A stretch of DNA of 64,000 nt from an uncultured Actinomycetes bacterium (GTDB lineage: Bacteria; Actinomycetota; Thermoleophilia; Gaiellales; Gaiellaceae): assembly GCA_963850485.1 (NCBI GenBank), contig CAWKLR010000026.1, positions 43,883 through 107,882 on the forward strand, in the 5' to 3' direction. Below are positions 37,023 to 62,398 of the stretch, in pieces. The notes beneath the pieces are model-generated. The model searched no databases, was not told the DNA's origin, and saw only the letters and a program-made list of their open reading frames with translations. Made by a program: the position numbers and the translations under genes. Position 1 is the first letter of the stretch, and each line of letters starts with the position of its first letter.

Positions 37023-37023
37023 A

Positions 37024-37804: not shown

Positions 37805-37826
37805 GGTGCCCGCCGCGAATACGGCG

Positions 37827-38123: not shown

Positions 38124-38164
38124 GCCGGGACGGTACCAAGGGCTGCGCTACCCTTGAGCCTCCC

Positions 38165-38236
38165 GGGCGCATAGCTCAGCGGGAGAGCGCTCGCTTCACA
38201 CGCGAGAGGTCCCTGGTTCGATCCCAGGTGCGCCCA
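38165..38236 (+). tRNA. tRNA-Val (anticodon CAC)
   Basis: GGGCGCATAGCTCAGCGGGAGAGCGCTCGCTTCACACGCGAGAGGTCCCTGGTTCGATCCCAGGTGCGCCCA. Confidence 0.9.
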
Positions 38237-38417: not shown

Positions 38418-41101
38418 TCACCCGTTCGCACATCCCGGGTGCGGGATGAGCGTGCGAAGCGCATAGGGAAGCGGCTGCGGGATGTCGCAGGCGGCACCCC
38501 AGATCTGCGGGTAGGGAGGCTGGTCCTTGACGTACCAGTGCCCGTCTCGGAAGACGGCGATGTCGGCATCTCCGATCGCCGTCGTAGTCTCCGGGAACGG
38601 GGACGATCTCCCGCCTGGCCCCAGATCTGCGGGAAGGGAGGCTGTCCCTGCACGTACCAGTGCCCGTTTCGGAAGACGGCGATGTCCGCATCTCCGTCTC
38701 CGTCGTAGTCGCCGGGGACGGGGACGTCTCCCGCCTGGCCCCAGATCTGCGGGTAGGGAGGCTGGTCCTTGACGTACCAGTGCCCGTTTCGGAAGACGGC
38801 GATGTCTACGTCTCCGTCTCCGTCGTAGTCAGCGGGGACGGGGACGTCTCCCGCCTGGCCCCAGATCTGCGGGTAGGGAGGCTGGTCCTTGACGTACCAG
38901 TGCCCGTTTCGGAAGACGGCGATGTCCGCGTCTCCGTCTCCGTCGTAGTCGGCGGGGACGGGGACGTCAGCCGCCTGGCCCCAGATCTGCGGGAAGGGAG
39001 GCTGTCCCTGCACGTACCAGTCCCCGTTTCGGAAGACGGCGATGTCGGTCGAGCCGTCGCCGTCGTAGTCAGCGGAGACCGAGAGATCCCCGCTTGCGCC
39101 CCAGATCTGCGGGAAGGGAGGCTGTCCTTGCATGTACCAGCCGCCCTCGGAGGGACGGAAGACCGAGAGGTCGGTGTCGCCGTCGCCGTCGAAGTCGGCG
39201 GGTGGGGGTGTTGGGGCCACCACCGCCTCGAGGTAGGCGTTCTCGTCGAGGTCGAGGCAGCCGGGGTTCGAATGTCTGTAGTAGTCGTCGTTCCCGGAGT
39301 CGAGAAGCACGTTCGCCCACCCGCTGGGGGCCCAGAAGTCGTCGCCCGCCCACATGAGGTCGTCGGCGGTGTCCGAGACGTGACCCGCTCGCCAATGGTG
39401 CGGCGCACAGGCGGGGGCGAAGCCCAGCGTGTGCATGACCTCGTGCAGCATCCCGAACTCCAGGTATGTCGGCGGCTCGCCTGGCCCGGCGAAAGAGTTC
39501 GAGGAGCACGGCACTGACTCATCGGGCAAACCGTTGAGGTACATGGCCGCTACGTTGCCGACGAGGGTTGGTGGCCAAGCGCCACCGCCGCACGAAAACG
39601 TACTCGTCCCGTCGTAGTAAACAGCGTAGATCGTGTTCGGATCGTCGAATCCCGCCGCCTCCGTCTCGTTCTCGATCTCATCTCGGACGAAGGCTCCAAA
39701 GCTGGCGATCTCATCGTCCGCGCGGCTCAGCTGGAAGAACGAGATGTCGAGCGAGCCCTGGAAAGTGTCCGCCCGGAACGGGCGACCCCCGGTCTTGCCC
39801 GCGAGCCACGTCTGGAACGACTCGACCGTGTTCTTGAGTGTTCCGTCCGTGTCGAGCTCGCGGTCCGTGCCGTCGCTTGGGAGCACGTACATCACGTGGA
39901 TCTGGGGGCCGGGAACGTCGTCCGGTCGATCGGCCGTCGCGCGTGGCAGTACAGGGCCGTACGTCACCGCGAGCGGCCCGTCCCTGAACTCATCGAGTAC
40001 TCCCAGGGTCGGATCGCCCGGGCCAATGTCATAGCTGGCCGGTGAGCCGTCCTTGTTCCACGCCCACACGAGCTCACCCGCGATGCCTGCCGCGAACTGC
40101 GCGCCGAATTTTGCCCGGAAGGCGTTCGCACGAGCATTCAGCGATGCCACGTCCTCCTGGCGAATCCCGGTTTCCCCGACGAACAAGGGCTTGTCGAGCG
40201 CGTTGCACTGATCGATGCGAACCTGCAGCCCGTTCCACTGATCGCCTGGAATTGGCACGTTCGGCGAGCCGTAGTCATGAAACTCGCATAGGTCGATAGT
40301 CGACAGGTCGTGCACGGACTGGTACTCCTCGCTCTGGGCACCGCACTGGCCGCCACCGATCGTCCCGAGGCTGACGAGGTGATTCGCGTCTATTGACTTG
40401 ATCAATCCCGAGACATCATCTGCAAAGCTCTTCAGAATCTGAGCCGCGTTCGCACTGCAAGATCCAGAGCCTTCGCTTGGCTTGACCTCAGCCTCGTTCA
40501 TGAGCTGCCACGCGAGAATCGTGGAGTCGTCCTTGTAGCGCTCGACGATCTCAGCGACCCAACCGCGATACGACACCGTTCCTGCTGCATCGGGTTGCGT
40601 GTAACCGCCCGTGTACCACGCCTCGTCCTTGAAGCTGCCCGCACCGCCGTTCAGGCCGTCGCAGTCCTTCCACTGGTTCCCGAGCGTCACGATGACCTTC
40701 GTGCCGTGCGACTGGGCGACAGCGAGGGTGTTGTCGATCGCACTCCAGTCCCGGACTCCGCCGACCGTCGCGAGCGACTGAAAGAACCATGACCGCATAA
40801 CCTTCGGTCCGCCCGCGTTCGACATCGCGGAAAGCGACTCGTCCAATGTTGGGCCCGAGCCCATCGGGTACCAGCAACCCGAAAGGTTGTTGGCGTTGTA
40901 GACGTTCATCCCGGTGAAGCGGTACGGCTGGCCGTCCAGCTCGAGCGAAGTGCCCGAGCGCGTGACGAATCCAGGCTGCGCTGCCATCGCGGCGGAGGAG
41001 CCTCCCACGATGGTTAGCACCGCGATTGGCAGAAGCACCGCGATCACGGCCACCGGATTCACCAAACCATGTGACCACGACCATCCGGGGGCCTGCCTCA
41101 T
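38418..41101 (-). CDS. secreted GH5-type glycoside hydrolase fused to an HExxH-containing middle domain and six C-terminal FG-GAP/VCBS-type repeats; frame broken twice in the last repeat
   Basis: ORF 38105..41101(-): signal peptide. GH5-like region (WQLMNEAE acid/base, LFVGETG nucleophile context). Then GMLHEVMHTLGF. Then the 40-aa repeat [40 protein letters not shown] x6. After correcting two 1-nt insertions the true end reads ...[27 protein letters not shown], stop at 38418. The ORF-track tail, which crosses tRNA-Val, is an artefact. Confidence 0.8.
38470..39205. repeat. 120-bp tandem repeat array (6 units) encoding FG-GAP-type blades
   Basis: The anchor CCCCAGATCTGCGGG recurs at 38497, 38619, 38739, 38859, 38979 and 39099. 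Confidence 0.9.
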
Positions 41102-41478
41102 CGAATCATTCTCGTGCGCCGCCAGTGGCAGTTGAGGGGGCGCGGCGCGTGGTCCGTCAACGATGATCTCACCGATCGAAAACCCGTTGTCGCCGCAGCC
41201 ACGCCGCCCGCCTCGCCTCGTTGCTCACGGTCGTCAGACAGGCGCGACCGTATCCGGTCACCATGGTCGAGTCAAGCGACCGCTTCAAGTCTGGGAAACG
41301 CGCGAGCACGCCGATCGGTTCATGGAGTGCGTCATGGCAACCGTAGGAGCGGCAGGCGCAGCCAAACCGCTCGAAGTGCACCAACCCTGGAGTTGCTCCT
41401 CTGCGGCCCCCTAAAAGGGGGTCTCCTCAGCGCGCCGGAGCGTCGACGGACTTCATGGACACGAGAAAGGAGTAAGCG

Positions 41479-41658
41479 GTGGCAGCTCACGCAGAGCAGA
41501 AGACGACTCACGCGCTCGATTCGGAGGACACGACCAGAGCCTTCGTCGTCATCCGCTCGGACCAGCGCGGCGTCCTCGCCCCCGACATGTGGGACTACGC
41601 AATCGTCGGTTGGCTCTTCGTTACCCTCGTCGTCGTCTCGGCGTTTCTCCTGGCATAG
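41479..41658 (+). CDS. possible 59-aa tail-anchored membrane peptide
   Basis: AAGGAG 7 nt before GTG 41479. VAAHAEQKTTHALDSEDTTRAFVVIRSDQRGVLAPDMWDYAIVGWLFVTLVVVSAFLLA. Good third-position GC bias. Just under the ORF-track length cutoff. Confidence 0.35.
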   Translation: MAAHAEQKTTHALDSEDTTRAFVVIRSDQRGVLAPDMWDYAIVGWLFVTLVVVSAFLLA

Positions 41659-42092
41659 CCGGACAGACAACCACAGCCGGAACCACGTTCGAGTCCCGCA
41701 CCGCCCATCAGCAGGTCGCCGAGTGAACTCGGGGCCCTAACACCCATTGACTGGGGCGGCACGAACTCTTATCGAGGCAACTCCGCCAAGCGCGCGGCAC
41801 CCCGGTCTGGTTCTGCACAACCGTGGTCGTGTACGGCGCGCCATCGGCACGAGCAAGACAAGAGGCCGGACGCATGAGGGAGGTGTAGCTGCGGCACTAC
41901 TGCCCCCTCGTCGCCCCCCACCGGAGGCAGACTGCGCCCGACCTTCTCGCACAGTGGCCGCAACGGCCTTGCAGCGACTATGCCCCAATCGGGGCATCAG
42001 ACACTGATGGCTCGTAGCATCGAACCGTGGCCCCTGGGTCGAACCTTCGTATCATCGAAGCGGGCGGAAGCTTAGAAGAGAGATGGGCGTGG

Positions 42093-42296
42093 ATGGTTCG
42101 TAAGCTCGTTGGCGGCGTGGTGACTGGTGCCGGTATCGCGCTCCTCGTCCTCTCCGCGCTCGCAGATCCGATTGGCATCGGAGGCGGCGACGATTTCGGG
42201 TGGAAGCAGATGACCGGAGTCGCCATCGGCGCGGCAGCGATCGTCGTCGGTCTGGCTCTGCTCGTGCGGAGGGACCAGGAAGAGGCTTGGCTCTAG
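42093..42296 (+). CDS. possible small two-TM membrane protein
   Basis: MVRKLVGGVVTGAGIALLVLSALADPIGIGGGDDFGWKQMTGVAIGAAAIVVGLALLVRR... from inside ORF 42027..42296. Confidence 0.35.
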   Translation: MVRKLVGGVVTGAGIALLVLSALADPIGIGGGDDFGWKQMTGVAIGAAAIVVGLALLVRRDQEEAWL

Positions 42297-42363
42297 GCGC
42301 GCGTCTGCCGCGCATGGGCTCGCAGCTTTACTCTGCGAGCGCCCACGGCTAGAGTCGACCGAG

Positions 42364-42882
42364 ATGAGGATTCCGGCTGCCGTGACCGTCGCTCTGCTTG
42401 CCGCTGTCGCCGCGGTTGCGGCCAATGCAGCGTCGAGCTCCCCGACGGAGCGGGCCGCCTGGCAGCAGTACGGCCCGAACACAGTCCTGGTGTGCCACAA
42501 GACGGCTTCCCAGACCAAGCCGTTCGTCACGTTGAGCATCTCTCGTGAGGTGCTATCGACGTACCTGCGGCGCGGGGCGACCGTGGGCCCATGCGTCTAC
42601 GGTGCGGTGAGAACGGGAGGGTCTGTATCGCTACGCACCTGGAAAGGCCAGCCGATACGCGCACTTGATGCTCGGCGGCTGTACTCGATCGTCGTCACGG
42701 ACGCGTCTCGGGTCGAGAACTTCCACCTCCGGGGCAAAGGCATCGACCGAAGCACCGGGCTCAAAGCCCGCGGAACCGTGCGCTGGAAGGTCAGACTCAC
42801 TCCCGGTCGTTACAGCTACCGGTCGGACGCACATCCGCGACTCCAGCGTTTCTTCACCGCGCGCGCTCAGGGCTCAGCCTAA
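42364..42882 (+). CDS. secreted protein with a possible cupredoxin-like C-terminal domain
   Basis: Signal peptide MRIPAAVTVALLAAVAAVAANA. The C-terminal YSIVVTDASRVENFHLRGKGIDRSTGLKARGTVRWKVRLTPGRYSYRSDAHPRLQRFFT resembles the NFHL...C/S-D-x-H cupredoxin-like modules of high-GC Gram-positives (from memory). Confidence 0.45.
   Translation: MRIPAAVTVALLAAVAAVAANAASSSPTERAAWQQYGPNTVLVCHKTASQTKPFVTLSISREVLSTYLRRGATVGPCVYGAVRTGGSVSLRTWKGQPIRALDARRLYSIVVTDASRVENFHLRGKGIDRSTGLKARGTVRWKVRLTPGRYSYRSDAHPRLQRFFTARAQGSA
42826..42872 (+). repeat. copy 1 of a ~47-bp direct repeat (3' end of the cupredoxin-like gene)
   Basis: GACGCACATCCGCGACTCCAGCGTTTCTTCAC is identical to 53959..53990. Identity continues with 2 mismatches and 1 indel. 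Confidence 0.85.
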
Positions 42883-42891
42883 CGCGAGGGA

Positions 42892-42912
42892 GTGTGCCGG
42901 GTTCCGGCACAC
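42892..42912 (+). terminator. stem-loop terminator candidate after 42364..42882
   Basis: GTGTGCCGG-GTT-CCGGCACAC followed by GCTGTTGTTCG. Confidence 0.5.
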
Positions 42913-43094
42913 GCTGTTGTTCGAGTGGGTTTCCGCCCTCGGCTGCGCTCCGACTGCCCTGCCGACGATCCGCCGAGCTACGCTTCCTTACCCTCTGGAG
43001 TCAGTGGGACGAATGATCGACCCGCGTTCACCGGCGTAACACGCGCTCACCCGTCCGTGCACCCCGGCCGCGGAACGAGGCTACGAAGCGCATA

Positions 43095-43835
43095 GGGAAG
43101 CGGCTGCGGGACGTCGCAGACGGCACCCCAGATCTGCGGGTAGGGAGGCTGGTCCTTGACGTACCAGTGCCCGTCTCGGAAGACGGCGATGTCAGCGTCT
43201 CCGTCCCCGTCGTAGTCTCCGGGGACGGGGACGTCTCCGGCCTGGCCCCAGATCTGCGGGTAGGGAGGCTGTCCCTGCACGTACCAGTGCCCGTTTCGGA
43301 AGACGGCGATGTCGGCGTCTCCGTCCCCGTCGTAGTCGGCGGGCACGGGGATGTCTCCGGCCTGGCCCCAGATCTGCGGGTAGGGAGGCTGGACCTTGGA
43401 CGTACCAGTGCCCGTCTCGGAAGACGGCGATGTCTGCGTGTGCCGTCTCCGTCGTAGTCGGCAGGCACGGGGACGTCTCCGGCCTGGCCCCAGATCTGCG
43501 GGTAGGGAGGCTGTCCCTGCACGTACCAGTGCCCGTCTCGGAAGACGGCGATGTCTGCGTTTCCGTCTCCGTCGTAGTCGGCGGGGACGGGGACGTCTCC
43601 TGCCTGGCCCCAGATCTGCGGGTAGGGAGGCTGGTCCTTGACGTACCAGTGCGCCGTTTCGGAAGACGGCGATGTCGGTGGAGCCGTCTCCGTCGTAGTC
43701 GGCGGAGACCGAGAGATCCCCGGAGGCGCCCCAGATCTGCGGGAAGGGAGGCTGGCCCTGGAAGTACCAGCCACCCTCGGATGGCCTAAAGACCGAGATG
43801 TCGGTCGTGCCGTCACCGTTGAAATCAGCAACGAC
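43095..43835. repeat. 120-bp tandem repeat array (6 units, with 1-2 nt indels)
   Basis: Anchor CCCCAGATCTGCGGG at 43126, 43246, 43366, 43488, 43608 and 43729. Confidence 0.9.
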
Positions 43836-43850
43836 CTGCCCCGGAGTAGC

Positions 43851-44754
43851 CACCTGACCGGTCGTGAAGACGACCTGCTCCACGAGCGGGGTGCGCTCGC
43901 CTCCGCTCGAGGAGAGCAGCGCCCGGTACTGGGCATAGCGACCCGCCAGGCCGATCTGCCCACCCGAGCTCGCGATCGGCGTCCAGGCGCTCCACGAACC
44001 GTCCGGGGAGGCCGTGTCACCGGTGCGCACGCTCATCGCCAGCGTCGTGCCCAGCGGCAGCTGCGCCTGCCAGGAGAGCGACTGCCAGCCCACCTGTTGG
44101 CTGGCGTCGAACACGCGCGAGAGGAACGTCCCCGTCTCCGGATAGGGGCTCATGTGCAGCCAGTCGATGGTCGAGCGTCGCCCCGCCACTCGCGAAGTCG
44201 GAGACGAGAGGGCGCATCTGCGCGGTGATCGTCGCGTTGTGCCGGGCGACCTCCTGGCCGTCGACGAAGTAGACGACCTCGCCGGTGCCCCAGGCGATCT
44301 CGAAGCGATGCGGCTGCCCCAGCGAGACGCCGCTCAGCTCGGTCTCGGTCGCTTGCCCGCCGTTGTTGGTTCGGGCATAGAGCGTCGTCGCGGTGTTCTT
44401 GGTGCTGAACATGGCCCAGTTGGGCGAGGTGTTGTAGTCGACGCCCAGGCCGGCGTGCTCGAAGGAGGCAGCGCCGAAGGTGGCGCTGAACTCCAGCGAG
44501 CGGCCGGCGGCGAAGAAGGCGTTCGTTCCCGCCCAGGCGCCGTCGATCGAGAGTGAGCCGCCGCCGACGGTCACCGAGCCGGTACCCGCATTCCAGCTGT
44601 CCGAGGTCCAGCCGGCCGGCAGCGCCGAGCCGCTGAACTCGCTGCCGACGGTCGGCGCCAGCAAGAGCTCGCCGTCGCCGTCCTCACCCACGTACAGGTC
44701 TGCGCCGAGCGTGCCCGCCTGGAAGTCGGCGGCGGTGGTGTCGGTCAGGCCTGG
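43851..44754. repeat. 0.9-kb cassette ~99% identical to 51664..52566 (first ~315 nt also at 50459..50779)
   Basis: Line-by-line comparison: 6 substitutions and 1 indel (extra G at 44169/44170) over ~900 nt. Confidence 0.9.
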
Positions 44755-47700
44755 CGTGGACGTGGCCTGGACGCGTGATCGAGACGGTCGCCGCGTTCGA
44801 CTGTGCGGTGCCGTCACTCGCCTTGTAGGTGAACGAGGCGGTGCCGGTGAAGCCTGCAGCGGGCGTATAGGTGAACGACCCGTTCGCGTTCAGGATCACC
44901 GACCCGCTCTGCGGGATCGGTGATCTTCACCGCCGACAACGAGTCACCCGCATCCGGATCGCTGTCGTTACTCAGCACACCCGGTGCGGCCACCGTCAGG
45001 GGCGTGTTCTGCTGCGTCGCGTACGTGTCGGCTACGGCTGTCGGGGGCTGGTTGGTCGGGCTACCTGCGTAGCGGGCCTGGAAGGAGGCGGCTGCGGCCG
45101 GGAAGACCGCGTACTCGATGCCCTTGATCGTCTGTCGCTCGAAGGAGGTGGCGCTCCCGTTCTTCGTGAGTTCCGACAGCGAACCGCCGCCGGCCAAGGT
45201 CGGGAGCATGGCCTGCAGCCCGTTGGCGCCCGCGCCGACGGCAATATCGAAGGAGAGACTGTCGCCGCTCCAGCTGAGGGACTCGAACGAGGAGCCGTTG
45301 CGGCCGTCGAGCCACGTCAGCAGCTGGCGCGCCGAGACGACCGGCACGCCGCGCGTGCTGCGCGGAGGCGACGATCGCAGTCGGCACGGCGTGCCGCTGC
45401 TGATCGGTGTGCATGTTCGCGGTGAACACGCCGTAGTAGCCCTCGGGCCCGACGGCCCTGTCCAGCAGCGCGTCGATCGTGAGCGGGTAGGTCTGGCCCG
45501 ACTCGTCGGTCATCTGCGTCGCCGCCTGGTAGACGTCGATCATCGTGCCGTCGACGTCGGCGAACCGCATCGGCATGCCCGAGCCGGTGAAGAGCCCGGG
45601 GCGGTCCTGGATCCACTCAGGCGGGCCAGTAGTAGTAGTTCGTGTCGAGCCGGATGCCGTGGTCGAGCTCGACCTTCGGCTGGCGTGGCGTAGTCGCTCC
45701 AGGCGATGCAGTGCGTCCGGTTCGTCGTCGGCGCCGGAACGCTCGGGAACGTCGAGCTCGAAGCTCGCGAGCTGATCGTCGTAGATGTCGCTCGAGCTGA
45801 GCACGGCGTCTAGGTCCGGCGCAGCCCGTGTTGACGTGCAGCGCGACCTCGAAGCCCTGCGGCCTCGTAGGCGGCGGCCTGGGCGTCGGTCAGCGGCGTC
45901 GCTCGGTGTAGATGTACGACGGTCGCTCGGACGCACTCCCAGTCGGCGACCGAGCAGCCCGCCGGGCTCTGCTGCTTGAGCAGTTCGAACCGGCCGGCGG
46001 TGCCGCCGTTGCCGTGGTCGTCGCCGGTCATGACGACGACGGCCTTCTCGCCGCGCGGGAAGTACCAGAAGCGCGGCAGCGGCTTGCGATCGGCGTTCAT
46101 GATGCTCGATCAGGTTCGCGAGCAGCCGCTGCTGCTCGTCCGCCTGCGGGATCGCGACCTTTGTCAGGTCGACCCAGTCGGGCTCGAGCCGCCGAAGAAC
46201 AGATCGTCCGAGCGGATCGGCGCGCGATGCCGTCGCGCTCCTGGCCGGACCAGGCCGGGTTGCCCTGACGCGTGTAGACGACCGACCGCGCGAGGTCGAA
46301 GGTGAACGCCGCCGCCTGGCCGCCGTTCGGCCCGACGCGTGCGGAGCGTGACCGCGGGATTCGACGTCGCAGCGTGACGCGGTGTCGATAGAGCGTCGCG
46401 ACCGTCGGCGCCGCTGTCGAGCGTGTACCGGTCGGCGGTGCCGTGGAACTGGATCGTCTCGCCGACGATGCCCGCGCCTGGCGCCGTCGCCGTGTCGACC
46501 TGGAGATAGGCATTCGCGAGCGTCCCCGCTTCCGTCGGTCAGGCCGAGCAGCCCGGCGAGCTGCTTGTCGGGCCGCATCGCGATCAGGTTGCCGCCGGCC
46601 GTGCACCCAGTCGGTGAGCATCGTCACCTGGGCCGCCGTCAGCGGCATCTCGCCGAGCACGACGACGTCATAGTCCGACAGCAGGCTCGGCGTGACGGAG
46701 CGATAGTCGGTGGCGGTGAAGGCGTTCAGCCCCTCGGCCCGCAGGATCTCGGCGTAGTAGCGGCCGAACGGGTTGCGAGCTGCTTCCCACGACCAGCACC
46801 GGTCCGCCCGGTCCGTCGGTCGGCGGCGGAGGCGGCGGAGCCGCCGTCGTGAACGACCAGTTCTTGTCGGACTGGAGCGCGTTGCCTGCGAGGTCCGTAA
46901 CGCCGTTCGAGCCGCCCTTCACCGAAGCGGTGTAACTCGCAGAGTTGGAGAGCGCCGCGCTCGGATCCAGCGTCGCTGTGTGGGTCGCTGAGCTGTATGA
47001 GACCGCCGCCGGGACGAGCGCACCCGACCCGTCGCGGAGCTCGAAATTGCCCGTGAGGCTCGACTCGGCGATGCCCTCGCTGAACGTGACCGTGACGTTC
47101 GCGCTCGTACCGATGCCCGCCGCGCCATCACCAGGCGAGACGGACAGAACGGTCGGCGCGGTGTTGTCCGGGCCCACGTCCGTGACGAAAACGACGTCCA
47201 CCCAGTAGTTCGTGGCGTTGAACGACTGGTCGGGGAAGGAGCCGCTCGCGCCGTACTTGTAGATGCTGTTCGGCCCGTCCTGGCCATCTCGGAGCGCTGT
47301 GCAGCGGCGGATTGTCGACGGCGGAGCCGGTGAAATAGCCACTATCCGCCGCGTAGCGGCCGTTCGGCGCGTGGTAGGAAGCCACGTAGGTCGTACCCGC
47401 CGTCACCGCCGCCGGACTGGCAAGCGAGACCTGCTGCCAGCCCGAGGCACTTTCGCCGCTGAACGTCGCCTGGGCGAGGAGCGTCCCTCCGCTCGTCCAC
47501 AGGTGACCGACGTGCGTCCCCGTGTTCGCCGAGCCCTTGTAGAACCGCAGACCGGTGACGAAGCCGTCAACGTCGGTGCGGAACTTCACTCCGAGCTCAA
47601 CGGCCGCCGTGTCCGGGTCGCTCACCGTCGCGGGCGTCGTCGAGTTGCTCCAGATACTGCATGGGCAGGTTTGGCCAGCAACCGTGACGGTCGTGCCCGC

Positions 47701-49699
47701 TGATGGCGTCTCGAGGTTTCCGCTGTCGTCGACCGCCCGCGTCTTGAGCGTGACGCTGCCGGCTGAACTCGGTGTCCAGTTGTACGTCCACGTATCCCGG
47801 CCCTGGGCAGGAAGCCATGTTGTGCCCCCGTCGGTGGACACCTCTACCCCGCCGACCATGCCGGCCGTGTCCGATGCCGTGCCGGTAACTGTGACAGCCT
47901 GGCCCGCGACGAGCGTCGCGCCTGTGGACGGCGACGTGATCGTCGACGACGGAGGGCCTGCGTCCGACGACTCGGTCGGGGAGGTGAGCCCAGGCTGCAG
48001 GGTGGCGGGCAGCGCGCTCATGTCTGCCAACAGGTTGGCCGTTGCCTGCTGCATCCGAACGTCCACGGGCACGCCGCTGCCCCGATCGTGGGTCGCGTCG
48101 AGCCCCCACGGCCACTGAATCGTGCCCGCTCCGAAGACGAGCGCACCACTGGAGTGGCGATACATCGTCAAGTTGTGCGTCGCCGTCCCCGAGGCGTACG
48201 TGGAGCCGTGATCCTGGAGGACCGGCTGGTTCTGGCGGGTGGTGGACGACAGGCGGAAGAGTCCGGGCGGACGAGAGCCGTTGCGAGATCCTCGTCCCAC
48301 TCGTAGCCCAGCGTCCCGACGGGAAGCGACGCGAACTGGCCCTGGGTCAAGGTCGCGACGTCGGTGTTCCGCCAGAACCGCATCTTCCCGTCAGCCGCAG
48401 GCACCTCGATCGCCTGAGGACCGCCGCCGTCGTTGACCATGAAGATCGTGCCGGTGAGCGCGTTCTCGGGCTTCGGCCCTTCCGGGTTGAACGAACCGCG
48501 GATCGCGCCAGGTACCGGTCCAGACGTTGGCGGCTGGATCGATCTTCGCGTTCGCGTGCGTCTCCTTGTACGAGACGAGCGTCCGGTAATCGCTCGTCGA
48601 GCCGTCGATGCTCGGTCTCCCAGCGCGTCTTCCAGAAGACCTCGTTGCCGCTGAAGAACGCGAGATTCACGCCGGCGGCGCGCGCGGCCTCGACGTTGCC
48701 GCGCTGCTCGCCCGACCAGTACTCGTCATGGCCGACCGAGAGGAACGCCTCGTGCTCGAGCAGCTCGGCGCCGCGGCGCGCCGTGTCGACGCCGCTCGTG
48801 TAGCTGACGTCGTACCCGTTCCGCTCGAGCCAGCGGACCATCGGATACTCGGCGTTGAAGATCCAGTCCTCGGGCGCGTACCCGCGCGTCGTGAACGGGC
48901 GGTTGTAGCTCACCTTGTAGGCGCGACCGGCGGGGCTGCCGACGTAGAGGCTGTTGCCGCCGTACTGGTTGTATGCCTGCCAGGTCGTATCCAGGTCTGG
49001 AAGAGGAGGTCCGAGGCGCCGTCGTCATCGCGCACGACGAACGCGATGTGGCTCCCTTCGCTGGACACGTCGTCGCGGATGAGCTTCGCCAGGTAGATCC
49101 CGGAGACCGCGTCGGCGGGCACATCCCACGAGGCAGAGACCGCCCAGTTGCCGCAGTCGACGAGGCCCGTCCCGCTCTCTGACAGGCAGTCGGGCTGCGC
49201 CTGGGGCAGGGAGGCCGACGGATTCACGGTCGCGAGCTTGCGCGCGCCGGCGCCGCCGTAGTAGCCCAGCCGGTAGATGTCGAGGTGATACGCGGTCGAG
49301 GCGGTATCCACCTTGAACTCCACATTCGTGCCCTGGTCGACGCTGATGTCGGTCGCGAAGCCCTGGATGGCGGAATCACCCGTACCCGAGATGTCCCACT
49401 CGCTGCTAGGCGAGCCCGCCAGCTGGTTCTCGCACACGATCTCGTTCGCGCCGCATGGGTCTGCCGCGGCGACGCGATCCGAGCCGACGATGAGCATGAG
49501 CACCGCTGTGACGAGCAGTCCGAGCAGTGACCAGCTCGGCACAAGACTTCGGCGGGCTTCGTGAGTCGCCGAATCGCGCGTCGTGCGAGTCAGAGAGCCT
49601 GCATCCCCGGAGACACGCGCGCGCAGCGCATCCCCGGAGGACAAAAGCTCCGCTCGCGCTGTGGGCGACGGATTCATGTACCGAGCGCCATTCGGATCG

Positions 49700-50450
49700 C
49701 GTACGGCAGGACGACGGCCACGTCCGTCTCGACGCCCCAGCCGACGGTCGCCCCTCCGCGGACGTACCAGATACCTTCCGAAGGCCTGAACACCGCGATA
49801 TCGCTCGCGCCGTTGCCGTCGTAGTCACCGGGGACGGGGATGTCCCCGCTGGTTCCCCAGATCTGCGGGTAGGGCTCCTGGCCCCGGACGTACCACTCGC
49901 CGTCTCGGAAGACGGCGATGTCGGTGGTGCCGTTGCCGTCGTAGTCGCCGGGGACGGGGATGTCGCCCGCTGGTCCCCAGATCTGCGGGTAGGGCTCCTG
50001 GCCCTGGACGTACCACTCGCCGTCTCGGAAGACGGCGATGTCGGTGGTGCCGTTGCCGTCGTAGTCGCCGGGGACGGGGATGTCGCCCGCCTGGCCCCAG
50101 ATCTGCGGGTAGGGCTCCTGGCCCTGGACGTACCACTCGCCGTCTCGGAAGACGGCGATGTCGGTGGTGCCGTTGCCGTCGTAGTCGCCGGGGACGGGGA
50201 TGTCGCCGCTGGTTCCCCAGATCTGCGGGTAGGGCTCCTGGCCCTGGACGTACCACTCCCCGTCTCGGAAGACGGCGATGTCGGTGGTGCCGTTGCCGTC
50301 GTAGTCACCGGGGACGGGGATGTCCCCGCTGGTTCCCCAGATCTGCGGGTAGGGAGGCTGGTCCTTCGACGTACCAGCCACCTTCGGATGGCCTGAAGAC
50401 CGAGATGTCGGTCGTGCCGTCACCGTCGAAGTCAGCAACGACCTGCCCTG
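49700..50450. repeat. 120-bp tandem repeat array (6-7 units, inner units >97% identical)
   Basis: Anchor CCCCAGATCTGCGGG at 49855, 49975, 50095, 50215 and 50335. Sequence lines 49861, 49981, 50101 and 50221 are almost superimposable. Confidence 0.9.
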
Positions 50451-51663
50451 GGGCCGGTCACCTGACCGGTCGTGAAGACGACCTGCTCCACGAGCGGGGT
50501 GCGCTCGCCTCCGCTCGAGGAGAGCAGCGCGCGGTACTGGGCATAGCGACCCGCCAGGCCGATCTGCCCACCCGAGCTCGCGATCGGCGTCCAGGCACTC
50601 CACGAACCGTCCGGGGAGGCCGTGTCACCGGTGCGCACGCTCATCGCCAGAGTCGTGCCCAGCGGCAGCTGCGCCTGCCAGGAGAGCGACTGCCAGCCCA
50701 CCTGTTGGCTGGCGTCGAACACGCGCGAGAGGAACGTCCCCGTCTCCGGATAGGGGCTCATGTGCAGCCAGTCGACCGACACGCTCGTGCCGCCCGTGTT
50801 GTAATCGCTCGCGATCGGCCGCATCTCGGCGGAGATGTCCACGTTGTGCCGGGCGACCTCCTGGCCGTCGACGAAGTAGACGACCTCGCCGGCCCGCCAC
50901 TCGATCCGGTAAACGTGCGGCGCGGTCGGCGACACCCCGGTGATCTGGGTGTTCTCCGGGGAGCCGGAATTGGTCTTCGCCCAGAGACCGAGCGCGAGGC
51001 TGCCGCCGCCGGTCGAGAAATGGGCCCAGGGCGCGTCGTTGAAATCGACGCCGAAGCCCACGTGTTGGAAAGCATCGGTGCCGAAGGTGGCTACGAACTC
51101 GAGCGTGCGACCCGGGCCGAACAGCGCATCGGTGTTCGCCCGTGCCCCGTCCACCGAAAGCGACCCGTCTGCCACCGTCGCGGCACCGCCGGCGTTCCAC
51201 ACCGTCTGCGACCAGCCGGCCGGAAGCGCCGAGCCGCTGAACTCGCTGCCGACGGTCGGGTGCCAGCAAGAGCTCGCCGTCGCCGTCCTCTCCCACGTAC
51301 AGGTCTGCGCCGAGCGTGCCCGCCTGGAAGTCGGCGGTGGTGGTGTCGGTCAGACCTGGACGTGGGTGTCGCCTGGACGGTGATCGAGACGGTCGCCGCG
51401 TTCGACTGAGCCGTCCCGTCACTGGCCTTGTAGGTGAAGGAGTCGCCGCCGGAGAAGCCCGTAGCGGGCGTATAGGTGAAGGACCCGTTCGCGTTCACGG
51501 TCACCGACCCGTTCTGCGGATCGGTGCTCTCGACCGCCGTCAAGCTGTCACCGACATCCGGATCGCTGTCGTTACTCAAGACACCCGGCGCCGTCACCGT
51601 CAGCGGGGTGTCCTGCTGCGTCGCGTAGCTGTCGGCCGTGGCTGTCGGGGGCTGGTTCTCGGG

Positions 51664-52566
51664 CACCTGACCGGTCGTGAAGGCGACCTGCTCCACGAGC
51701 GGGGTGCGCTCGCCTCCGCTCGAGGAGAGCAGCGCCCGGTACTGGGCATAGCGACCCGCCAGGCCGATCTGCCCACCCGAGCTCGCGATCGGCGTCCAGG
51801 CACTCCACGAACCGTCCGGGGAGGCCGTGTCACCGGTGCGCACGCTCATCGCCAGAGTCGTGCCCAGCGGCAGCTGCGCCTGCCAGGAGAGCGACTGCCA
51901 GCCCACCTGTTGGCTGGCGTCGAACACGCGCGAGAGGAACGTCCCCGTCTCCGGATAGGGGCTCATGTGCAGCCACTCGATGTCGAGCGTCGCCCCGCCA
52001 CTCGCGAAGTCGGAGACGAGAGGGCGCATCTGCGCGGTGATCGTCGCGTTGTGCCGGGCGACCTCCTGGCCGTCGACGAAGTAGACGACCTCGCCGGTGC
52101 CCCAGGCGATCTCGAAGCGATGCGGCTGCCCCAGCGAGACGCCGCTCAGCTCGGTCTCGGTCGCTTGCCCGCCGTTGTTGGTTCGGGCATAGAGCGTCGT
52201 CGCGGTGTTCTTGGTGCTGAACATGGCCCAGTTGGGCGAGGTGTTGTAGTCGACACCCAGGCCGGCGTGCTCGAAGGAGGCAGCGCCGAAGGTGGCGCTG
52301 AACTCCAGCGAGCGGCCGGCGGCGAAGAAGGCGTTCGTTCCCGCCCAGGCGCCGTCGATCGAGAGTGAGCCGCCGCCGACGGTCACCGAGCCGGTACCCG
52401 CATTCCAGCTGTCCGAGGTCCAGCCGGCCGGAAGCGCCGAGCCGCTGAACTCGCTGCCGACGGTCGGCGCCAGCAAGAGCTCGCCGTCGCCGTCCTCACC
52501 CACGTACAGGTCTGCGCCGAGCGTGCCCGCCTGGAAGTCGGCGGCGGTGGTGTCGGTCAGGCCTGG
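51664..52566. repeat. partner copy of the 0.9-kb cassette at 43851..44754
   Basis: See 43851..44754. Confidence 0.9.
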
Positions 52567-52823
52567 CTCTGCGGCGACAGACTCCGAGCCGCCTGTTAGC
52601 CCCAGCAGCCCGACTACGAGCAATACGAGCAGCGACCCGCTGGCCACACGGCGTCGCCGAGGTGCCTCAAAAGTTGAACCCACGCCCATTCCCCCCCCGC
52701 AATGAGTGCAGCGCGTCGGCTACTGCGTGGGAGAAGGACCCCTAAATCCTTCCCGCACCTTTTCCTCCGACAGCCGCAGGATGTCGTTCGGAACCTGGTG
52801 CTTACTTACTACGTTCTTCCTGC

Positions 52824-53729
52824 TTATTGCTCTTTTGGTCGTCCCACAGTAGCAGGTGTCACGATGTTCGAGTAGCAGATGCCACTAGGGAGCACCACGC
52901 ACGACGTGATTCGGGCCGAGACTGCCGACTCGTTTGCGCATCGCAGAGTGCACTCACTGAAGCGGTTGGCGCTCTCGACGCAGCTGCGGCGGTAGCGCGG
53001 GCAAAGTGCGATCTCCAGCCTCCAGAGCCTCACCCCCATGGGTTCCGTCAGCTGCGACCAGATCCAGTCGTAGGTGCACTCGAGCCCGGCGCGGAGCGGA
53101 GTCGACGGCTGCCAGCCGAGGCGCTCCTGGATCAAGGTGTTGTCGCTGTTCCTGCCGCGGACGCCCTGCGGCGCGTCGAGGTCGTAACGCCGCTCCAGTG
53201 TCAAGCCCTCGATCCCCTCGATGAGGTCGACGAGCCCGTTGACCGTCACGAGCTCCGAGCTCCCGACGTTCAGCGGCTCCGCGACGTCGCTCGCCATCAG
53301 GCGCAGCGTCCCCTCGATCGCATCGTCGATGTAGGTGAAGCTCCGCGTCTGCTCGCCGTCCCCCCAGATCTCGATCTCATGGCGGCCCGAGAGCTTCGCC
53401 TCGGCAACCTTGCGACAGATCGCGGCGGGAGCCTTCTCGCGTCCCCCTGCATACGTGCCGTTCGGACCGTAGACGTTGTGGTACCGAGCGATGCGCACCT
53501 CGAGACCGAAGTCCTCCGCGAAGTGTCGACACATACGCTCGCCGAAGAGCTTCTCCCAGCCGTACCCGTCCTCGGGCATCGCGGGGTACGCGTCGGATTC
53601 CGTGAGCGCCGTGACCTCGGAGGTGACCTGCTTCTCGGCTGCGTAGACGCAGGCCGACGACGCGAAGAAGTACCGCCGGACGGCCGCAGCCGTGCTCGCC
53701 CGGGACACGTGTCGCGACCTGAACCGCAT
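52824..53729 (-). pseudogene. 5'-truncated GDP-mannose 3,5-epimerase-like NAD-dependent epimerase with an odd Cys-rich, lower-GC C-terminal extension
   Basis: RRYFFASSACVYAAEKQ...AYPAMPEDGYGWEKLFGERMCRHFAEDFGLEVRIARYHNVYGPNGTYAGGREKAPAAICRK...IWGDGEQTRSFTYIDD. The Rossmann GxxGxxG N-terminal ~100 aa is absent. The tail reads MGVRLWRLEIALCPRYRRSCVESANRFSECTLRCANES... Confidence 0.65.
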
Positions 53730-53965
53730 CGGAGCGTGTCAGCGCCAACCCCGCCTACGAGGCGGTCATTACCCGGCCCACCTACGAGCAGGTCGTTGCC
53801 TGCGGCGCCGATGAGCTTGTCGTTACCGCCTTTGCCGTAGATCTGGTCCGCGCGAGGGCCCCCGCGCAACGTGTCATTGCGTGCCGACCCGTTGATGGTC
53901 GCCGCCCAGACCGTGCCGGCGGCGAACGCGAGGAGGGCGAATGCAAGTGCCGCCAACCGACGCAC
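53720..53965 (-). CDS. small secreted RTX/hemolysin-type calcium-binding repeat protein (fragment; no stop of its own)
   Basis: GTG 53965. MRRLAALAFALLAFAAGTVWAATINGSARNDTLRGGPRADQIYGKGGNDKLIGAAGNDLLVGGPGNDRLVGGVGADTLRCGSGRD. The frame then continues out-of-frame across the epimerase remnant. Confidence 0.5.
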
Positions 53966-54005
53966 ATCCGCGACTCCAGCGTTTCTTCACTGCGCGCGCA
54001 CAGGC
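53959..54005 (+). repeat. copy 2 of the ~47-bp direct repeat (orphan 3' gene fragment)
   Basis: Would encode ...DAHPRLQRFFTARAQARPDKPS, versus ...DAHPRLQRFFTARAQGSA in the intact gene at 42364..42882. Confidence 0.85.
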
Positions 54006-54042
54006 TCGACCCGATAAACCCTCGTAAGCGTCGGTTCTCGAC

Positions 54043-55344
54043 TCAGGTCAGAGCGTCTCTCACGCAGACCGGCGGAATCCGTCCTGATCCATACCCACCG
54101 TCAACGACGTACCTGGTAACTGCCTCCAATTCCGTTGGCGGCGCCAGTGCCCGCTCGAGCCGGGAAAGCGCGCGCACGCGCCCGAACTGTTCTTGTGCGT
54201 ACGCCCGCGCCCGCAAGCCGAGCTCTTCGCGCAACTCCGGTTGCGCACTCAAGGTTCGCATGGCATCTGCGAGCTCGCGAGGCGCTTCAGGCGGGACGAT
54301 CAGCGCTCCGCCCGACTCTTTCAGGACAGACGCAGCCTCACTGGTTGCCGAAACCGAAGCTACGACCGGCCGGCCGCTCGCGAGGTAGGAGGCGATCTTC
54401 GACGGGAAGTTCGCGTTCGCGCTGACTCCCCGCTGGACGACGACGTGAACATGTGCCGAAGCCAGCAGGTCGGGATAGTGGTCATTCGTCACAGGTGGAG
54501 AGACCTCAACGTTCGTCGTGGTGGCCGCCAATCGTCGCACCTCGGCGGCCGAGTTACCTGCCCCGACGATCTCGAGGCGGATGTCGTCACCCACCAGGCG
54601 GGCGGCCTCGACGAGCGTCTCGACTCCTTGCGTGTATCCGAGGTTTCCCGCGTACAGGAACCGCGTGGGCCCGAGGGGTTCTCGCGGCGGTAGTGCTCGT
54701 ACTCGGTCGAGGTCGACCCAGTTGTGGATTATTTCGATCCGCTCGGGCTCGACGCCGAGCCGCTCCGCGTGCTCGGCGAAAACCGGGCTGCATACGACCA
54801 GACCGTCGGCGGCACGGAACACGGCCTTCTCCACGCCTCCCGCGAGCCCGATCAAGCGGCAAGCACCAGGGCCGAGATCGTCGAGCGACGAGGCTGCGCG
54901 TAGCACAAGGTCCTGCACCCATAAGACGAGGCGAACACGCCTGCCGCTCGCACGAGCCGCCCGGACGAGAACAGCGCTCCCGGCGGCAGCGCTCAGACAT
55001 GGGACAACGCAGAGAACGACGTCGGCTCGCGCGATCCGTCGAATGGCCGCCGGTGTCGAAAGCGCCGCGAACGAGAGCTCGTACAGCGCCTTGTCGACGA
55101 AGCGTTCCCTGGGTCGGGCCCAAAGCCATGACCGATGGAGACCCACGTCTCCGCGGCGCTCACTCAGCCAGATCTTCCCGCGGTATCCGGGATGGATCCG
55201 CCGCTCGGGGTAGTTGGGCAGCGCCGTGACCACGTCGACCTGATGCCTGCGGGCAGCGAGCCAGTTGCAGGCATCGGTGACGAGCGGCGGGATGCCGATG
55301 AGCTCCGGCGCATAGTTCGGAGACCAGACGAGGATCCGGCTCAC
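54043..55344 (-). CDS. GT4-family glycosyltransferase (WcaI-like)
   Basis: Intact 433 aa. VSRILVWSPNYAPELIGIPPLVTDACNWLAARRHQVDVVTALPNYP... and a C-terminal GT-B Glycos_transf_1-like region. Confidence 0.85.
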   Translation of the reverse strand: MSRILVWSPNYAPELIGIPPLVTDACNWLAARRHQVDVVTALPNYPERRIHPGYRGKIWLSERRGDVGLHRSWLWARPRERFVDKALYELSFAALSTPAAIRRIARADVVLCVVPCLSAAAGSAVLVRAARASGRRVRLVLWVQDLVLRAASSLDDLGPGACRLIGLAGGVEKAVFRAADGLVVCSPVFAEHAERLGVEPERIEIIHNWVDLDRVRALPPREPLGPTRFLYAGNLGYTQGVETLVEAARLVGDDIRLEIVGAGNSAAEVRRLAATTTNVEVSPPVTNDHYPDLLASAHVHVVVQRGVSANANFPSKIASYLASGRPVVASVSATSEAASVLKESGGALIVPPEAPRELADAMRTLSAQPELREELGLRARAYAQEQFGRVRALSRLERALAPPTELEAVTRYVVDGGYGSGRIPPVCVRDALT

Positions 55345-55359
55345 GAATGCACTGCTACG

Positions 55360-55560
55360 ACAGCGAGCTGGTTTCCGAAGCGGCCGGCGACCGCATTCGC
55401 GAGACGGAATGAAGACGCGATGCGGCGAGCGCGCGGCGATCTGGCGATACGCAATCGCATCCGGAGCCCTGAGCGCCGCCGCCGAGATGCAGCAGAGTGG
55501 GGTGACGAAAAGGTCACGCGGAGACGACCCGGTCCGTACCGGTAGTAGGCCGTTCCGATC
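55360..55560 (-). pseudogene. diverged partial duplicate of the 3' end of the adjacent methyltransferase gene
   Basis: 55361..55440 aligns at roughly 70% identity by eye to 55700..55780 (ACGACAGCGAGCT.GTT.CC.AA...GCCGGC..CCGC.TTCGC.AG...GAATGA). 55530..55560 aligns to ~55815..55845 (GACCCGG.TCGT.CCGGTAGTA). Confidence 0.3.
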
Positions 55561-55681
55561 GGTGCGACCGATGTGGCGTACGCCGCAGTAACTTTCTCAC
55601 TCCCCCAAGGCCCCGTCGAGTGTTGTACAGACCGACTGAGGATACTCGGTTTGTCGCAAATGGGGCATATTTGACCGCGAG

Positions 55682-56618
55682 TTACGATTCGGCTCCCCGC
55701 CGGACCGCCACGACAGCGAGCTTGTTGCCAAAATCGCCGGCAGCCGCGTTCGCCAGCTTGAATGAGCTTGTCGCGGCCTCAAAAAGGCCACGATGCGAGA
55801 GGAGCCGCACGACGCGACCCGGCTCGTGCCGGTAGTACATCGCGTAACGGCGGCTCTTGCGGATGGAGAAACCTCGGTCGCGAAGGGCGGCTATCACCGC
55901 CTCGGCGTCGAGTCGACCGACGCGGTTGCCGGCTTCCTCGCGCTCGAGGGCCAGACCGGCGCGCACGGCAAGGGCGGTGATCCGCGCCCGTGCGGGCTCA
56001 CTGACGCAGACAGCCGAGCGCGCGACTCGTGCCATCTCCGCGAGACCGGCGAGCGGGTCGTCGAGATGATGGAGACCGTCGTGCACGTGAACGACATCGA
56101 CGGAGCGGTCGCGGAACGGGAGAGACGCGGCATCGCCGACGACGGCGAGCAGCTCGAAGCCGTGACGCCGCGCGCGCTCGTTCGCCCGCCGCGCTGCTCC
56201 GAGAGACACGTCGAGCGCGACGACGTTGGCTCCCGCGCGCGCCAGGAACTCTGCGTCCATCCCTGACCCCGCACAAATCGTGAGTGCCGTCGCTCCCGCG
56301 AAGCTCGACACCCTCGACGGCGCGCCGGAACTTCTCCTCGAGCAACCAGCGGTGGAGTGCAGGCGCGCCGTGCGGTCGCTCGATCTCCCATTCGTCGTCT
56401 GCTTGCTCGTCGAACCAATCCGCTTGCCGCCGAGAGTGCTCCGACGGGCCGACGAGGAGCAGCGGAATACCGCCATCGACCTCGTACCGAATGCCGCACC
56501 GGCAGCGCGCTTCCGTCGGCCCGAGCGCGAGGTCGCCGTGGCAGGCCGGGCACACGAGGAGCTCGAACACGGCAGGAGGCGGGGAGGTCACCTCGGTCAA
56601 TGGCTCCGCTGCGGTCAC
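55682..56618 (-). CDS. class I SAM-dependent methyltransferase with N-terminal Trm112-like zinc ribbon, frame broken near 56295-56320
   Basis: ORF 55998..56618(-): FELLVCPACHGDLALGPTEARCRCGIRYEVDGGIPLLL. ORF 55682..56476(-): ALTICAGSGMDAEFLARAGANVVALDVS...DVVHVHDGLHHL. Confidence 0.8.
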
Positions 56619-57449
56619 CGCGACTTCTCCACTCGGCTTCGCTCGCCCATCTTCAGCCCGATCTGCCAGTAGTAGAAACCACGAGACACGGCGTAGTGGA
56701 AGCCCGCGCGCCCGTCAAGGAACCCACCGGTCAGGAGGTACGAGTAGGCGAAGATCCCGAGAGGCCGAAACGGCATCGACGCGAACGCCCGCTTGAGCCG
56801 AAGACGCCGAGCCGTTTGGGTCTCGTCGTCCCGCCCGATGCCGCCTCGCAAGCGCAGAGCTGCTTCCCAGTCCGAGTAGCGATTGTGCCGCTCGAAGTAG
56901 TGATAGAGGTCGTCATGGTCGCGATGGAGCATCCGGCCACGCAGCGTCCCGACGCGTCCGTCGACCGTCGGCTGATAGTGCCCCTCGACCTCCCACATGT
57001 GCTCGACGTCGAGATCGTCGATCGGGACATACCGCGCGCGGCGCCGATCGAAGAGCACGAGCTTGAACACGCGAAGTCCGTGCCCTAGCCGCCTCCCGAG
57101 GAAGACATAGTCGTAGCCGACGAAGTACCCGGCCCGGTCGAACCCGCGGGCCGCATGTCGCGCTATCTCGTCGACCAGCCCCGCGGTGAGTTCCTCGTCC
57201 GCATCGAGAAAGAGGACGAAGTCGTGCCGGAAACGGGAGGTTCTCGAGGCACCACTGCTTCTTCTTCGGATACCGGCCGTTCCAGACGAACTCGACGACC
57301 TCGGCGCCGGCCGATCGGGCGATCTCCTGCGTGCTGTCGTCGCTCTGCGAGTCGACGACGAAGACCTCGTCGAACCGCTCGACCGACGCCAGGCACTTCG
57401 AGAGATTCGCCTCTTCGTTCTTCGTCATGACGACGACGGAGACCGGCAC
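56615..57449 (-). CDS. GT2-family glycosyltransferase, frame broken near 57235
   Basis: VPVSVVVMTKNEEANLSKCLASVERFDEVFVVDSQSDDST (ORF 56913..57506), then HDFVLFLDADEELT... and the rest in the frame of ORF 56615..57070. An extra base is needed at TTTCCGGCAC. Confidence 0.8.
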
Positions 57450-62174: not shown

Positions 62175-62398
62175 TCGAGCTGTCCACATGTGCCGCCGAT
62201 CGTCCTGCGGCCGCCGCGCTCGCTCATCGCCAGATGGACGCGACCGCGACAGGGGCGAGCTGCGCGCGCTAAGCACCTCGAGACGAGAACACCGCAGGCC
62301 TCATTCGCGCACTGTGAAAGAAAGCGAGACGTGTGTCCAACGTACCGTTCTGGTCCGGCGCCTTGCCCCTCCCAGACGGCTTGCGCCTCCCCGGCACC

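Follow-up and report, generated by a model that had tools for sequence, protein, structure and literature searches.

Organisation of the locus

The analysed window is a 64,000-nucleotide (nt) stretch (positions 43,883 to 107,882) of contig CAWKLR010000026.1 from assembly GCA_963850485.1, an uncultured member of the Gaiellaceae (Actinomycetota), and has a G + C content of 67%. Between 38.4 and 52.7 kb its minus strand carries three genes, here named A, C, and B, whose products combine unrelated heads with a common C-terminal propeller. Gene A (38421..41101, minus strand), delineated from its open reading frame (ORF) and by three-frame stitching, codes for 894 amino acids (aa) after correction of two frameshifts and consists of a signal peptide, a glycoside hydrolase family 5 (GH5) domain, an HExxH domain, and a six-bladed propeller. 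Gene C (43050..49677, minus strand) was stitched across approximately 27 frameshifts into a giant protein of the DUF4082 family with about 2168 aa and an appended propeller, and gene B (49677..52689, minus strand) yielded after four frameshift corrections a protein of 1004 aa that contains a signal peptide, a cassette, a cadherin-like domain, a second cassette, and the propeller. Frames were stitched manually and checked by tblastn against intact homologs, the frame-plot signal of the G + C content at third codon positions (GC3) being too weak. The ORF coordinates confirmed two claims of an earlier note made from the sequence of this DNA, namely that the three genes are co-oriented on the minus strand and that the stop codon of B and the start codon of C overlap by ATGA (49674..49677, minus strand). 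This overlap suggests translational coupling of B and C and an operon organisation. The end of gene A at 38418 given in the same note lies close to the corrected stop at 38421, and its domain calls for the three proteins were largely reproduced by Pfam.

The N-terminus of each of the three proteins is a hydrophobic segment resembling a signal peptide. Elsewhere in the 64-kb window the propeller does not recur, and searches against NCBIfam with A, B, an intact homolog of C (P0148), and the neighbouring ORFs identified no informative family.

The shared C-terminal propeller

The module of protein A, including a tail with a cysteine pair (38421..39202, minus strand), was analysed with Pfam, AlphaFold2 (AF2), and Foldseek. 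It matched the Pfam families FG-GAP_3 (69.1 bits, cut-off 26.9) and FG-GAP (65.5 bits, cut-off 22.1), and the modules of B and C matched FG-GAP as well. The motif D[FY][DN]G[DN]G occurs exactly six times in each protein at a spacing of 40 aa; the 40-aa repeats described previously were thus recovered, and the count of six to seven copies has to be corrected to six in every case. Within a protein the blades are 85–97% identical. The propeller of C, which also ends in a cysteine-pair tail (43050..43840, minus strand), has six blades that share 82–97% identity with the blades of the same index in A, and the complete propellers of A and C are approximately 87% identical in protein sequence. The six-bladed propeller of B (49677..50451, minus strand) is more divergent and represents a variant of the type GNGTTD...GEWYV...QEPYPQIWG, with an identity of up to 97% between its internal blades, the cysteine-free tail LPYAIRMALGT, and the C-terminus ...VVLPYAIRMALGT.

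Structure prediction with AF2, based on an alignment of the A module with 33 homologs, gave a model with a mean predicted local distance difference test (pLDDT) value of 93.6 and a predicted TM-score (pTM) of 0.89, in which six equivalent four-stranded units are followed by a tail that forms a short terminal helix. The question whether the repeats close into six or seven blades is answered by this model in favour of six, and the module is predicted to be a closed six-bladed propeller of the VCBS/FG-GAP superfamily. Each 40-aa blade carries an integrin-type DxDxDG loop of the calcium type, and the module is probably stabilised by Ca2+.

A comparison of the model with the Protein Data Bank (PDB) by Foldseek retrieved as top match the propeller of Streptomyces UmbA4 in complex with teichuronic acid (9oee_A, E 3.8e-8). 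It was followed by the fungal N-acetylglucosamine (GlcNAc) lectins PVL (2bwr_A, E 2.4e-6), AAL2 (4tqm_A, E 3.1e-6), and PAL (5mb4), with E-values of 2e-6 to 1e-5; TM-scores normalised to the query (TMq) were 0.54–0.58 for 9oee_A, 2bwr_A, and 4tqm_A, and propellers of the BBSome, KICSTOR, and TcB were also listed. A phmmer search of the module against PDB sequences returned nothing significant. At the sequence level the module does not group with a characterised lectin family, because matches were marginal and its blades have 40 aa as compared to approximately 55–60 aa.

VCBS propellers have been grouped with integrins, PVL, and tachylectins in one supercluster, and they are found in proteins with signal peptides beside Ig and jelly-roll domains (PMC8023676). 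The highly repetitive VCBS propellers among them occur in bacteria, their median blade number is six, and as a rule they are tied to carbohydrate recognition; a role of VCBS proteins in bacterial self-recognition has also been proposed (PMC9218822). With this highly repetitive class (PF13517/PF01839; Pereira and Lupas, 2021, 2022) the module shares the Pfam matches, one DxDxDG loop per blade, the signal peptide, the association with Ig and jelly-roll domains, and six near-identical blades. Nothing that defines the class differs, apart from the peculiarities of unusually short 40-aa blades and of a cysteine-pair cap that is confined to a narrow clade. The earlier note could not assign the module to a described system; with FG-GAP_3/VCBS and FG-GAP scores well in excess of the Pfam cut-offs, it fits the published six-bladed VCBS class (PMC8023676, PMC9218822), within which the propellers with 40-aa blades are a sub-family without any characterised member.

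The C-terminal domain of UmbA4 is a six-bladed propeller lectin with conserved Ca2+ loops, which accommodates the cell-wall glycopolymer teichuronic acid in canonical pockets (PMC13274773). UmbA4 (9oee; Cell 2025) resembles the module in its six blades, in loops of the type GD(F/Y)(N/D)GDG..D, and in being a secreted actinobacterial protein, but its blades have approximately 60 aa, its pockets have diverged between the blades, and in the toxin particle to which it belongs it is linked to trypsin-like and bulb-lectin domains. Affiliation of the locus with the umbrella toxins was rejected, since neither a trypsin-like UmbA head nor genes of the UmbB/UmbC type are present among the ORFs scanned around it.

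The terminal tail noticed earlier in A and C is indeed common to both, whereas B ends differently and without cysteines. The tails of A and C have a length of 27 aa, each contains one cysteine pair, and both proteins have an even number of cysteines (12 in A and 12 in C). Many homologous propellers end with the pattern ...GD.P.PLP.A[IL]R..., so that the "PLPYALR" tail is the usual final strand and cap by which propellers of this family are closed; the version with a cysteine pair was found among the homologs only in P0241, P0245, and P0270. Neither LPXTG nor L[PA]xT[GAS], as signals for sortase or exosortase, occurs anywhere in A, B, or C, and a C-terminal hydrophobic helix was not detected in these proteins (maximal hydropathy of a 19-aa segment within the last 60 residues, 0.46–1.14). 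The tail does not hold up as a separate signal in view of the ending shared with the homologs and the lack of both LPXTG and a C-terminal hydrophobic segment, and a function as sorting signal was ruled out on the basis of this shared ending and the absent sortase motif.

Heads of the three proteins and their reading frames

The description of A as a GH5-like hydrolase combined with an HExxH domain was borne out. Its catalytic domain (40055..40873, minus strand) matches the GH5 family (Cellulase, PF00150; E 1e-10) over profile positions 17–269 of 272 and possesses both characteristic motifs, NEA202 with the acid/base and GETG309 with the nucleophile, which places it in GH5. Hundreds of homologs were found, many of which are named mannan endo-1,4-beta-mannosidase (by JGI), and they carry varied C-terminal propellers (PD40, Kelch, RCC1, YVTN, NHL, and FG-GAP). 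Judged by its motifs, the GH5 of A is apparently an intact domain of the mannanase type. The adjacent region of approximately 245 aa (39227..39949, minus strand) contains the motif HEVMH553 and is not covered by any Pfam or NCBIfam model. At E ≤ 1e-3 its family comprises 1618 cluster representatives, and at the stricter limit of E ≤ 1e-30 still 500. The core HE..H...H is invariant or nearly so, the conserved elements include HE..H, CAPHH, and GHV.D..DLM, and the domain would be zincin-like. In the homologs it is combined with RTX, CWB2, FG-GAP, cadherin, LamG, Kelch, and legume lectin domains. In protein A, a GH5 domain is thus joined to an HExxH domain that is common but has no name.

Protein C shows the domain order DMFA2_C, Big_7, DUF4082, Big_5, a central region of approximately 580 aa with PRFWYFPRGEKAVVVMTGDDHGNGGT, a cadherin-like domain, a concanavalin-like cassette, and FG-GAP. 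DMFA2_C (PF20254; 48094..49284, minus strand) was recovered in pieces over three frameshifted ORFs (E 2.9e-21, 7.1e-36, and 7.5e-07). It is followed by Big_7, DUF4082, and Big_5 (46845..47952, minus strand; E 2.3e-11, 3.2e-46, and 3.7e-24, respectively) and, beyond the central region, by the cadherin-like domain, the cassette, and a further beta domain (43847..45059, minus strand; Cadherin_4, E 3.5e-11; weak GH16 match, E ~1e-3). Of 8000 candidates in the family search, 7991 matched C at E ≤ 1e-3, with 2400–3084 bits and 56–70% identity for the top matches. The homologs are proteins of 2000–2700 aa in Planctomycetota, Pseudomonadota, Acidobacteriota, and Actinomycetota. The intact homolog P0148 could be mapped collinearly onto the window by tblastn, and C was on these grounds classified as a giant DUF4082 protein. 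By sequence it is a member of a very large, uncharacterised family; functional literature on DUF4082 was not found. With the giant DUF4082 proteins of Tautonia plasticadhaerens, Nocardioides pinisoli, and Rivibacter subsaxonicus, C shares the full head from DMFA2_C to the end cassette at 60–68% identity. These homologs end in a cassette, CopC, FN3, or purple-acid-phosphatase-N, whereas C adds the cadherin-like domain and the propeller. The propeller of C is an addition, since the intact homologs P0148 and P0185 stop at the concanavalin-like cassette, the normal C-terminus of the family.

The central region of C (TGDDHG...HVNTGC...NRTHC; 45042..46805, minus strand) contains the densest frameshifts and is predicted to fold into three parts, a GATase1/ThuA-like domain, an alpha/beta domain, and a beta-sandwich. 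Neither Pfam nor the PDB sequence search returned a match for the region. The AF2 model of the homologous segment of P0148 (residues 932–1513) reached a pLDDT of 78.8, and Foldseek matched only its first ~200 aa, to domain B of GH42 and to ThuA-like folds. A CE4/NodB deacetylase, to which the TGDDH...H motif had pointed, was supported by none of Pfam, the PDB sequence search, and Foldseek. The invariant residues of the region include GDDH, R..HC, TGS..MRF, and W.D.RN. In different DUF4082 homologs it is located near residue 40, 940, 1200, or 1650–1800, and because of this varying position the family is regarded as internally permuted.

For B, the earlier description as two LamG-like cassettes with a cadherin-like domain was confirmed, with the order cassette, cadherin-like domain, cassette, and FG-GAP; no recognisable catalytic domain was found in this protein. 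The first cassette (51660..52566, minus strand; repeat families D2–D5) is a near-identical duplicate of positions 43851–44755 in C. Over 905 nt the two copies differ by six substitutions and one indel (99.2% DNA identity), which identifies B as a recent partial duplicate of the C-terminal cassette region of C.

The three genes contain approximately 33 frameshifts (2 in A, ~27 in C, and 4 in B), which are single-base indels. Gene A is read as a 998-aa ORF, on record in uncorrected form in NCBI/ENA (P0001), whose final 150 codons are read in the wrong frame; once both 1-nt shifts, near 38606 and 38575, are corrected, the final repeat and the stop codon at 38421 are restored. C and B are broken into many overlapping ORFs. 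Elsewhere in the window, the FAD_binding_2 domain of nadB is split over two overlapping ORFs (7739–8905 and 7414–7977, minus strand), and a family 1 glycosyltransferase (GT1) gene (58101–59412, minus strand) is interrupted at ~58.5 kb. The frameshifts are most likely errors of a Nanopore assembly and not signs of gene decay, because the nadB and glycosyltransferase genes in the window are split, too; together with a truncated epimerase gene, these cases point to indel errors across the contig. The closest genome match to the window is a metagenome-assembled genome (MAG) of the Microflora Danica dataset, whose MAGs are Nanopore-only assemblies with one round of Medaka polishing (PMC12313526).

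The opposite explanation is that of a locus in decay: in this strain B, and C above all, would be genuine pseudogenes, and the shared propeller would at present have no role at this locus. Such decay would account for the ~27 frame changes in C and the four in B, for the loss of the N-terminal Rossmann part in the adjacent epimerase, and for approximately 30 single-base insertions relative to an 89.9% identical ortholog of C on contig L004 (ENA assembly ERZ25039591), which cluster within 1.4 kb of C (45355–46776) far more densely than elsewhere. This cluster may reflect a poorly supported consensus, caused by low coverage or a strain mixture, or local decay. Two further points weigh against the assembly-error explanation: the frameshift density in C, about one per 245 nt, is much above that in A and leaves room for decay of C, and a Nanopore origin of the data underlying the window is derived from its relatives rather than documented. 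Against decay, stitching revealed no premature stop codons other than those resulting from the frame changes, and all domains are still recognisable at 60–68% identity to distant homologs. Homologous genes in the sister assemblies are also frameshifted, at other positions, and the housekeeping gene nadB and the glycosyltransferase genes are affected likewise. Moreover, the substitutions between C and its L004 ortholog number 60, 50, and 132 at the first, second, and third codon positions, respectively, a bias that indicates purifying selection at the sequence level. A decaying locus is therefore regarded as very improbable and true pseudogenisation of C as unlikely.

In the last repeat of A (38575–38610), both inserted bases create a GATC relative to the sister repeat (GGAGA-CG to GGAGATCG and GGAGA-CGG to GCGATCGG), and these insertions may represent a motif-linked basecalling artefact.

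Distribution, genomic context and proposed function

A word-indexed search with the A module retrieved 5039 homologous proteins at E ≤ 1e-3, from sources including Solirubrobacteraceae, Acidimicrobiales, Pyrinomonadaceae, and Chloroflexi, and with heads as different as proprotein-convertase P, reprolysin-type proteases, CAP, M23, cohesin, PKD, FN3, and Kelch. Tandem arrangements were found in assembly ERZ25039591, where contig L003 contains three co-oriented genes that end in the propeller and have Ig/He_PIG, LamG_3, and LamG_3 + He_PIG + Metallophos heads, and L004 contains orthologs of C and B plus a gene with Metallophos and FG-GAP domains. L001, a MAG with 93% identity to the window over 30.8–35.5 kb, carries at the collinear position a propeller 93.9% identical to that of A at the nucleotide level on a quite different head, and its flanking genes show the same degree of identity. 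Just downstream of A lies a cluster of four tRNA genes, of which three are tRNA-Ser and one is tRNA-Val (35402–38236). The synteny with L001 (2324–5645) breaks exactly at this cluster, beyond which L001 has paralogs and the different head on the orthologous propeller; this arrangement suggests that the region next to the tRNA genes is variable and that heads are swapped there.

Upstream of the three genes, and in the same orientation, lies a group of glycan-biosynthesis genes (52824..62276, minus strand), in which Pfam identified the epimerase fragment, a small RTX ORF, a GT4, a methyltransferase, a GT2, the split GT1, and Wzy_C (59409–60209, minus strand; E 1.5e-14), next to a possible MOP flippase (60852–62276, minus strand). 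The flippase had no Pfam match and only a sub-threshold match in NCBIfam (E 1.2e-4; 21 bits, cut-off 273). Of the Wzx/Wzy locus proposed earlier, Wzy_C, the GT4, GT2, and GT1 genes, the methyltransferases, and the epimerase fragment were thus verified, and Wzx is represented by this single sub-threshold match. The idea that the propeller genes are tied to this locus was not upheld, since related contigs contain the same propeller attached to different heads, in one case in three tandem genes, without glycan genes within ~10 kb. Specifically, glycan genes are absent within ~8–10 kb of the propeller genes in L001 and L003; in L004 none lie downstream, the upstream side being uninformative because gene B is cut off by the contig end. 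The repeats are not specific to the locus, and the protein architectures turned out to be common, though uncharacterised. As far as the compared sequences allow, the module is freely shuffled, tandem arrays recur, and linkage to a Wzy locus is not conserved.

The epimerase (52827–53738, minus strand) lacks the first ~97 profile positions. Between it and the GT4 gene, the small RTX ORF (~53740–53990, minus strand) encodes a signal peptide and nonapeptide repeats (HemolysinCabind, E 1.2e-16). A direct repeat of 46 nt is present at 42826–42871 and 53959–54004 (96% identity, 11.1 kb apart) and encloses C and B together with the epimerase fragment and the RTX ORF. Read on the minus strand, it provides the GGAG and GTG start of the RTX ORF, and on the plus strand the C-terminus of ORF 42364–42882; it may mark the boundary of a duplication or insertion. 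ORF 42364–42882 (plus strand) lies between A and C in a stretch conserved in L004 and encodes 172 aa with a signal peptide and without a family match; its C-terminal PGRYSYRSDAHPRL loosely resembles the spacing of a cupredoxin copper site, with the cysteine absent. Further away, two tRNA-Ser(TGA) genes (23407–23495 and 24992–25083, plus strand) are separated by 1.6 kb and adjoin a gene for an initiating sugar transferase with Bac_transf and CoA_binding_3 domains (25112–26623, minus strand), which may act in the glycan pathway of this locus or in another one. An Rfam scan identified tRNAs only.

In our opinion, the locus as a whole is best explained, with a probability of about 0.55, by a multivalent, lectin-like propeller that would bind glycans and thereby retain secreted proteins. 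Six near-identical blades would confer avidity for a repetitive glycan, and the propeller would hold unrelated secreted domains on a polysaccharide surface, which would most likely be the envelope or matrix glycan of the producer itself and less likely an environmental substrate. The domains held in this way would be the mannanase-type GH5 with the zincin-like HExxH domain, the giant DUF4082 protein, and the concanavalin-like cassettes. The three genes arose by local duplication and domain shuffling, in that B was copied from the cassette region of C, and C received a propeller past its normal end. Glycan binding, calcium dependence, and the type of ligand are in each case predicted by analogy from fold and family. 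The occurrence of other binding modules (CWB2, RTX, Kelch, and legume lectin) with the HExxH homologs was counted in favour of retention. Of the anchoring, secretion, or substrate-targeting roles suggested in the earlier note, targeting or anchoring appears reasonable considering the propeller fold and its lectin relatives, and a secretion or sorting role is not supported. The attribution of carbohydrate activity to the heads is justified for GH5 and putative for the DUF4082 giant and the LamG-like cassettes, and relatives of the module are found on proteases, phosphatases, and CAP proteins.

Several observations weigh against a glycan-retention role. The likeness to lectins exists at the fold level only (TM-score ~0.55 by query, 18–21% identity), and a profile search against PDB linked the module to 9oee_A only marginally (E 0.029). 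The PVL-type lectins (2bwr, 4tqm, and 5mb4) share the FG-GAP propeller and the DxDxDG loops and bind GlcNAc multivalently between their blades, but they are stand-alone eukaryotic proteins with seven blades of ~55 aa and 18–21% identity. There are also propellers in this superfamily, those of integrins and TcB for example, that serve as contact sites between proteins. Finally, the synteny with the glycan locus is not kept in L001 or L003, so that no specific ligand is indicated.

Alternatively, the propeller could be a carbohydrate-binding module (CBM) that directs the enzymes to a polysaccharide in the environment, for instance mannan or glucan from plants or fungi. The apparently intact mannanase-type GH5 of A, the many alternative C-terminal propellers and lectin-like modules of its homologs, and the lectins as closest folds all agree with this possibility, which is nevertheless considered unlikely: the same module is attached to proteases, metallophosphatases, CAP, M23, and pure Ig/LamG proteins without a polysaccharide substrate, and B has no recognisable catalytic domain. 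Generic retention is more parsimonious than substrate targeting because the module is also found on proteases, phosphatases, and non-catalytic Ig/LamG proteins. The propeller could also act without any glycan binding as a scaffold for protein-protein interaction or self-recognition, in a surface complex or in the recognition of kin or partners. VCBS/integrin-type propellers do include protein binders, self-recognition has been suggested for VCBS proteins (PMC9218822), and the BBSome, KICSTOR, and TcB are among the Foldseek matches. However, the blades are conserved and not diversified (82–97% per blade between A and C; 93.9% at the nucleotide level between A and L001, equal to the flanking genes), and the best-scoring structural neighbours are all lectins, which makes a protein scaffold very doubtful.

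A more specific form of anchoring would be that the propeller is an unrecognised non-covalent surface anchor of soil Actinomycetota comparable to SLH or CWB2, for which the adjacent Wzy locus would supply the ligand, with an operon coupling the synthesis of the glycan to the enzymes displayed on it; we assign little probability to this proposal. The SLH, CWB2, LysM, GW, and choline-binding repeats follow the same logic of a repeated C-terminal module on unrelated secreted enzymes of one genome, but they have no sequence or fold relation to the propeller. Both the propeller class and the head families are already known and common, and the locus adds one member to them, not a new system.

If the propeller is a glycan-binding retention domain, it would explain how exo-enzymes of various kinds stay at the surface of a large uncultured group of soil Actinomycetota, and of some Chloroflexota and Acidobacteriota, and it would offer a compact and highly symmetric six-site lectin scaffold for engineering. 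The locus also provides a clean natural case of domain shuffling, with one propeller on GH5, DUF4082-giant, and LamG heads and a head swap at an orthologous site, and it draws attention to two large uncharacterised families for structural work, the HExxH domain and the central domain of the DUF4082 giants.

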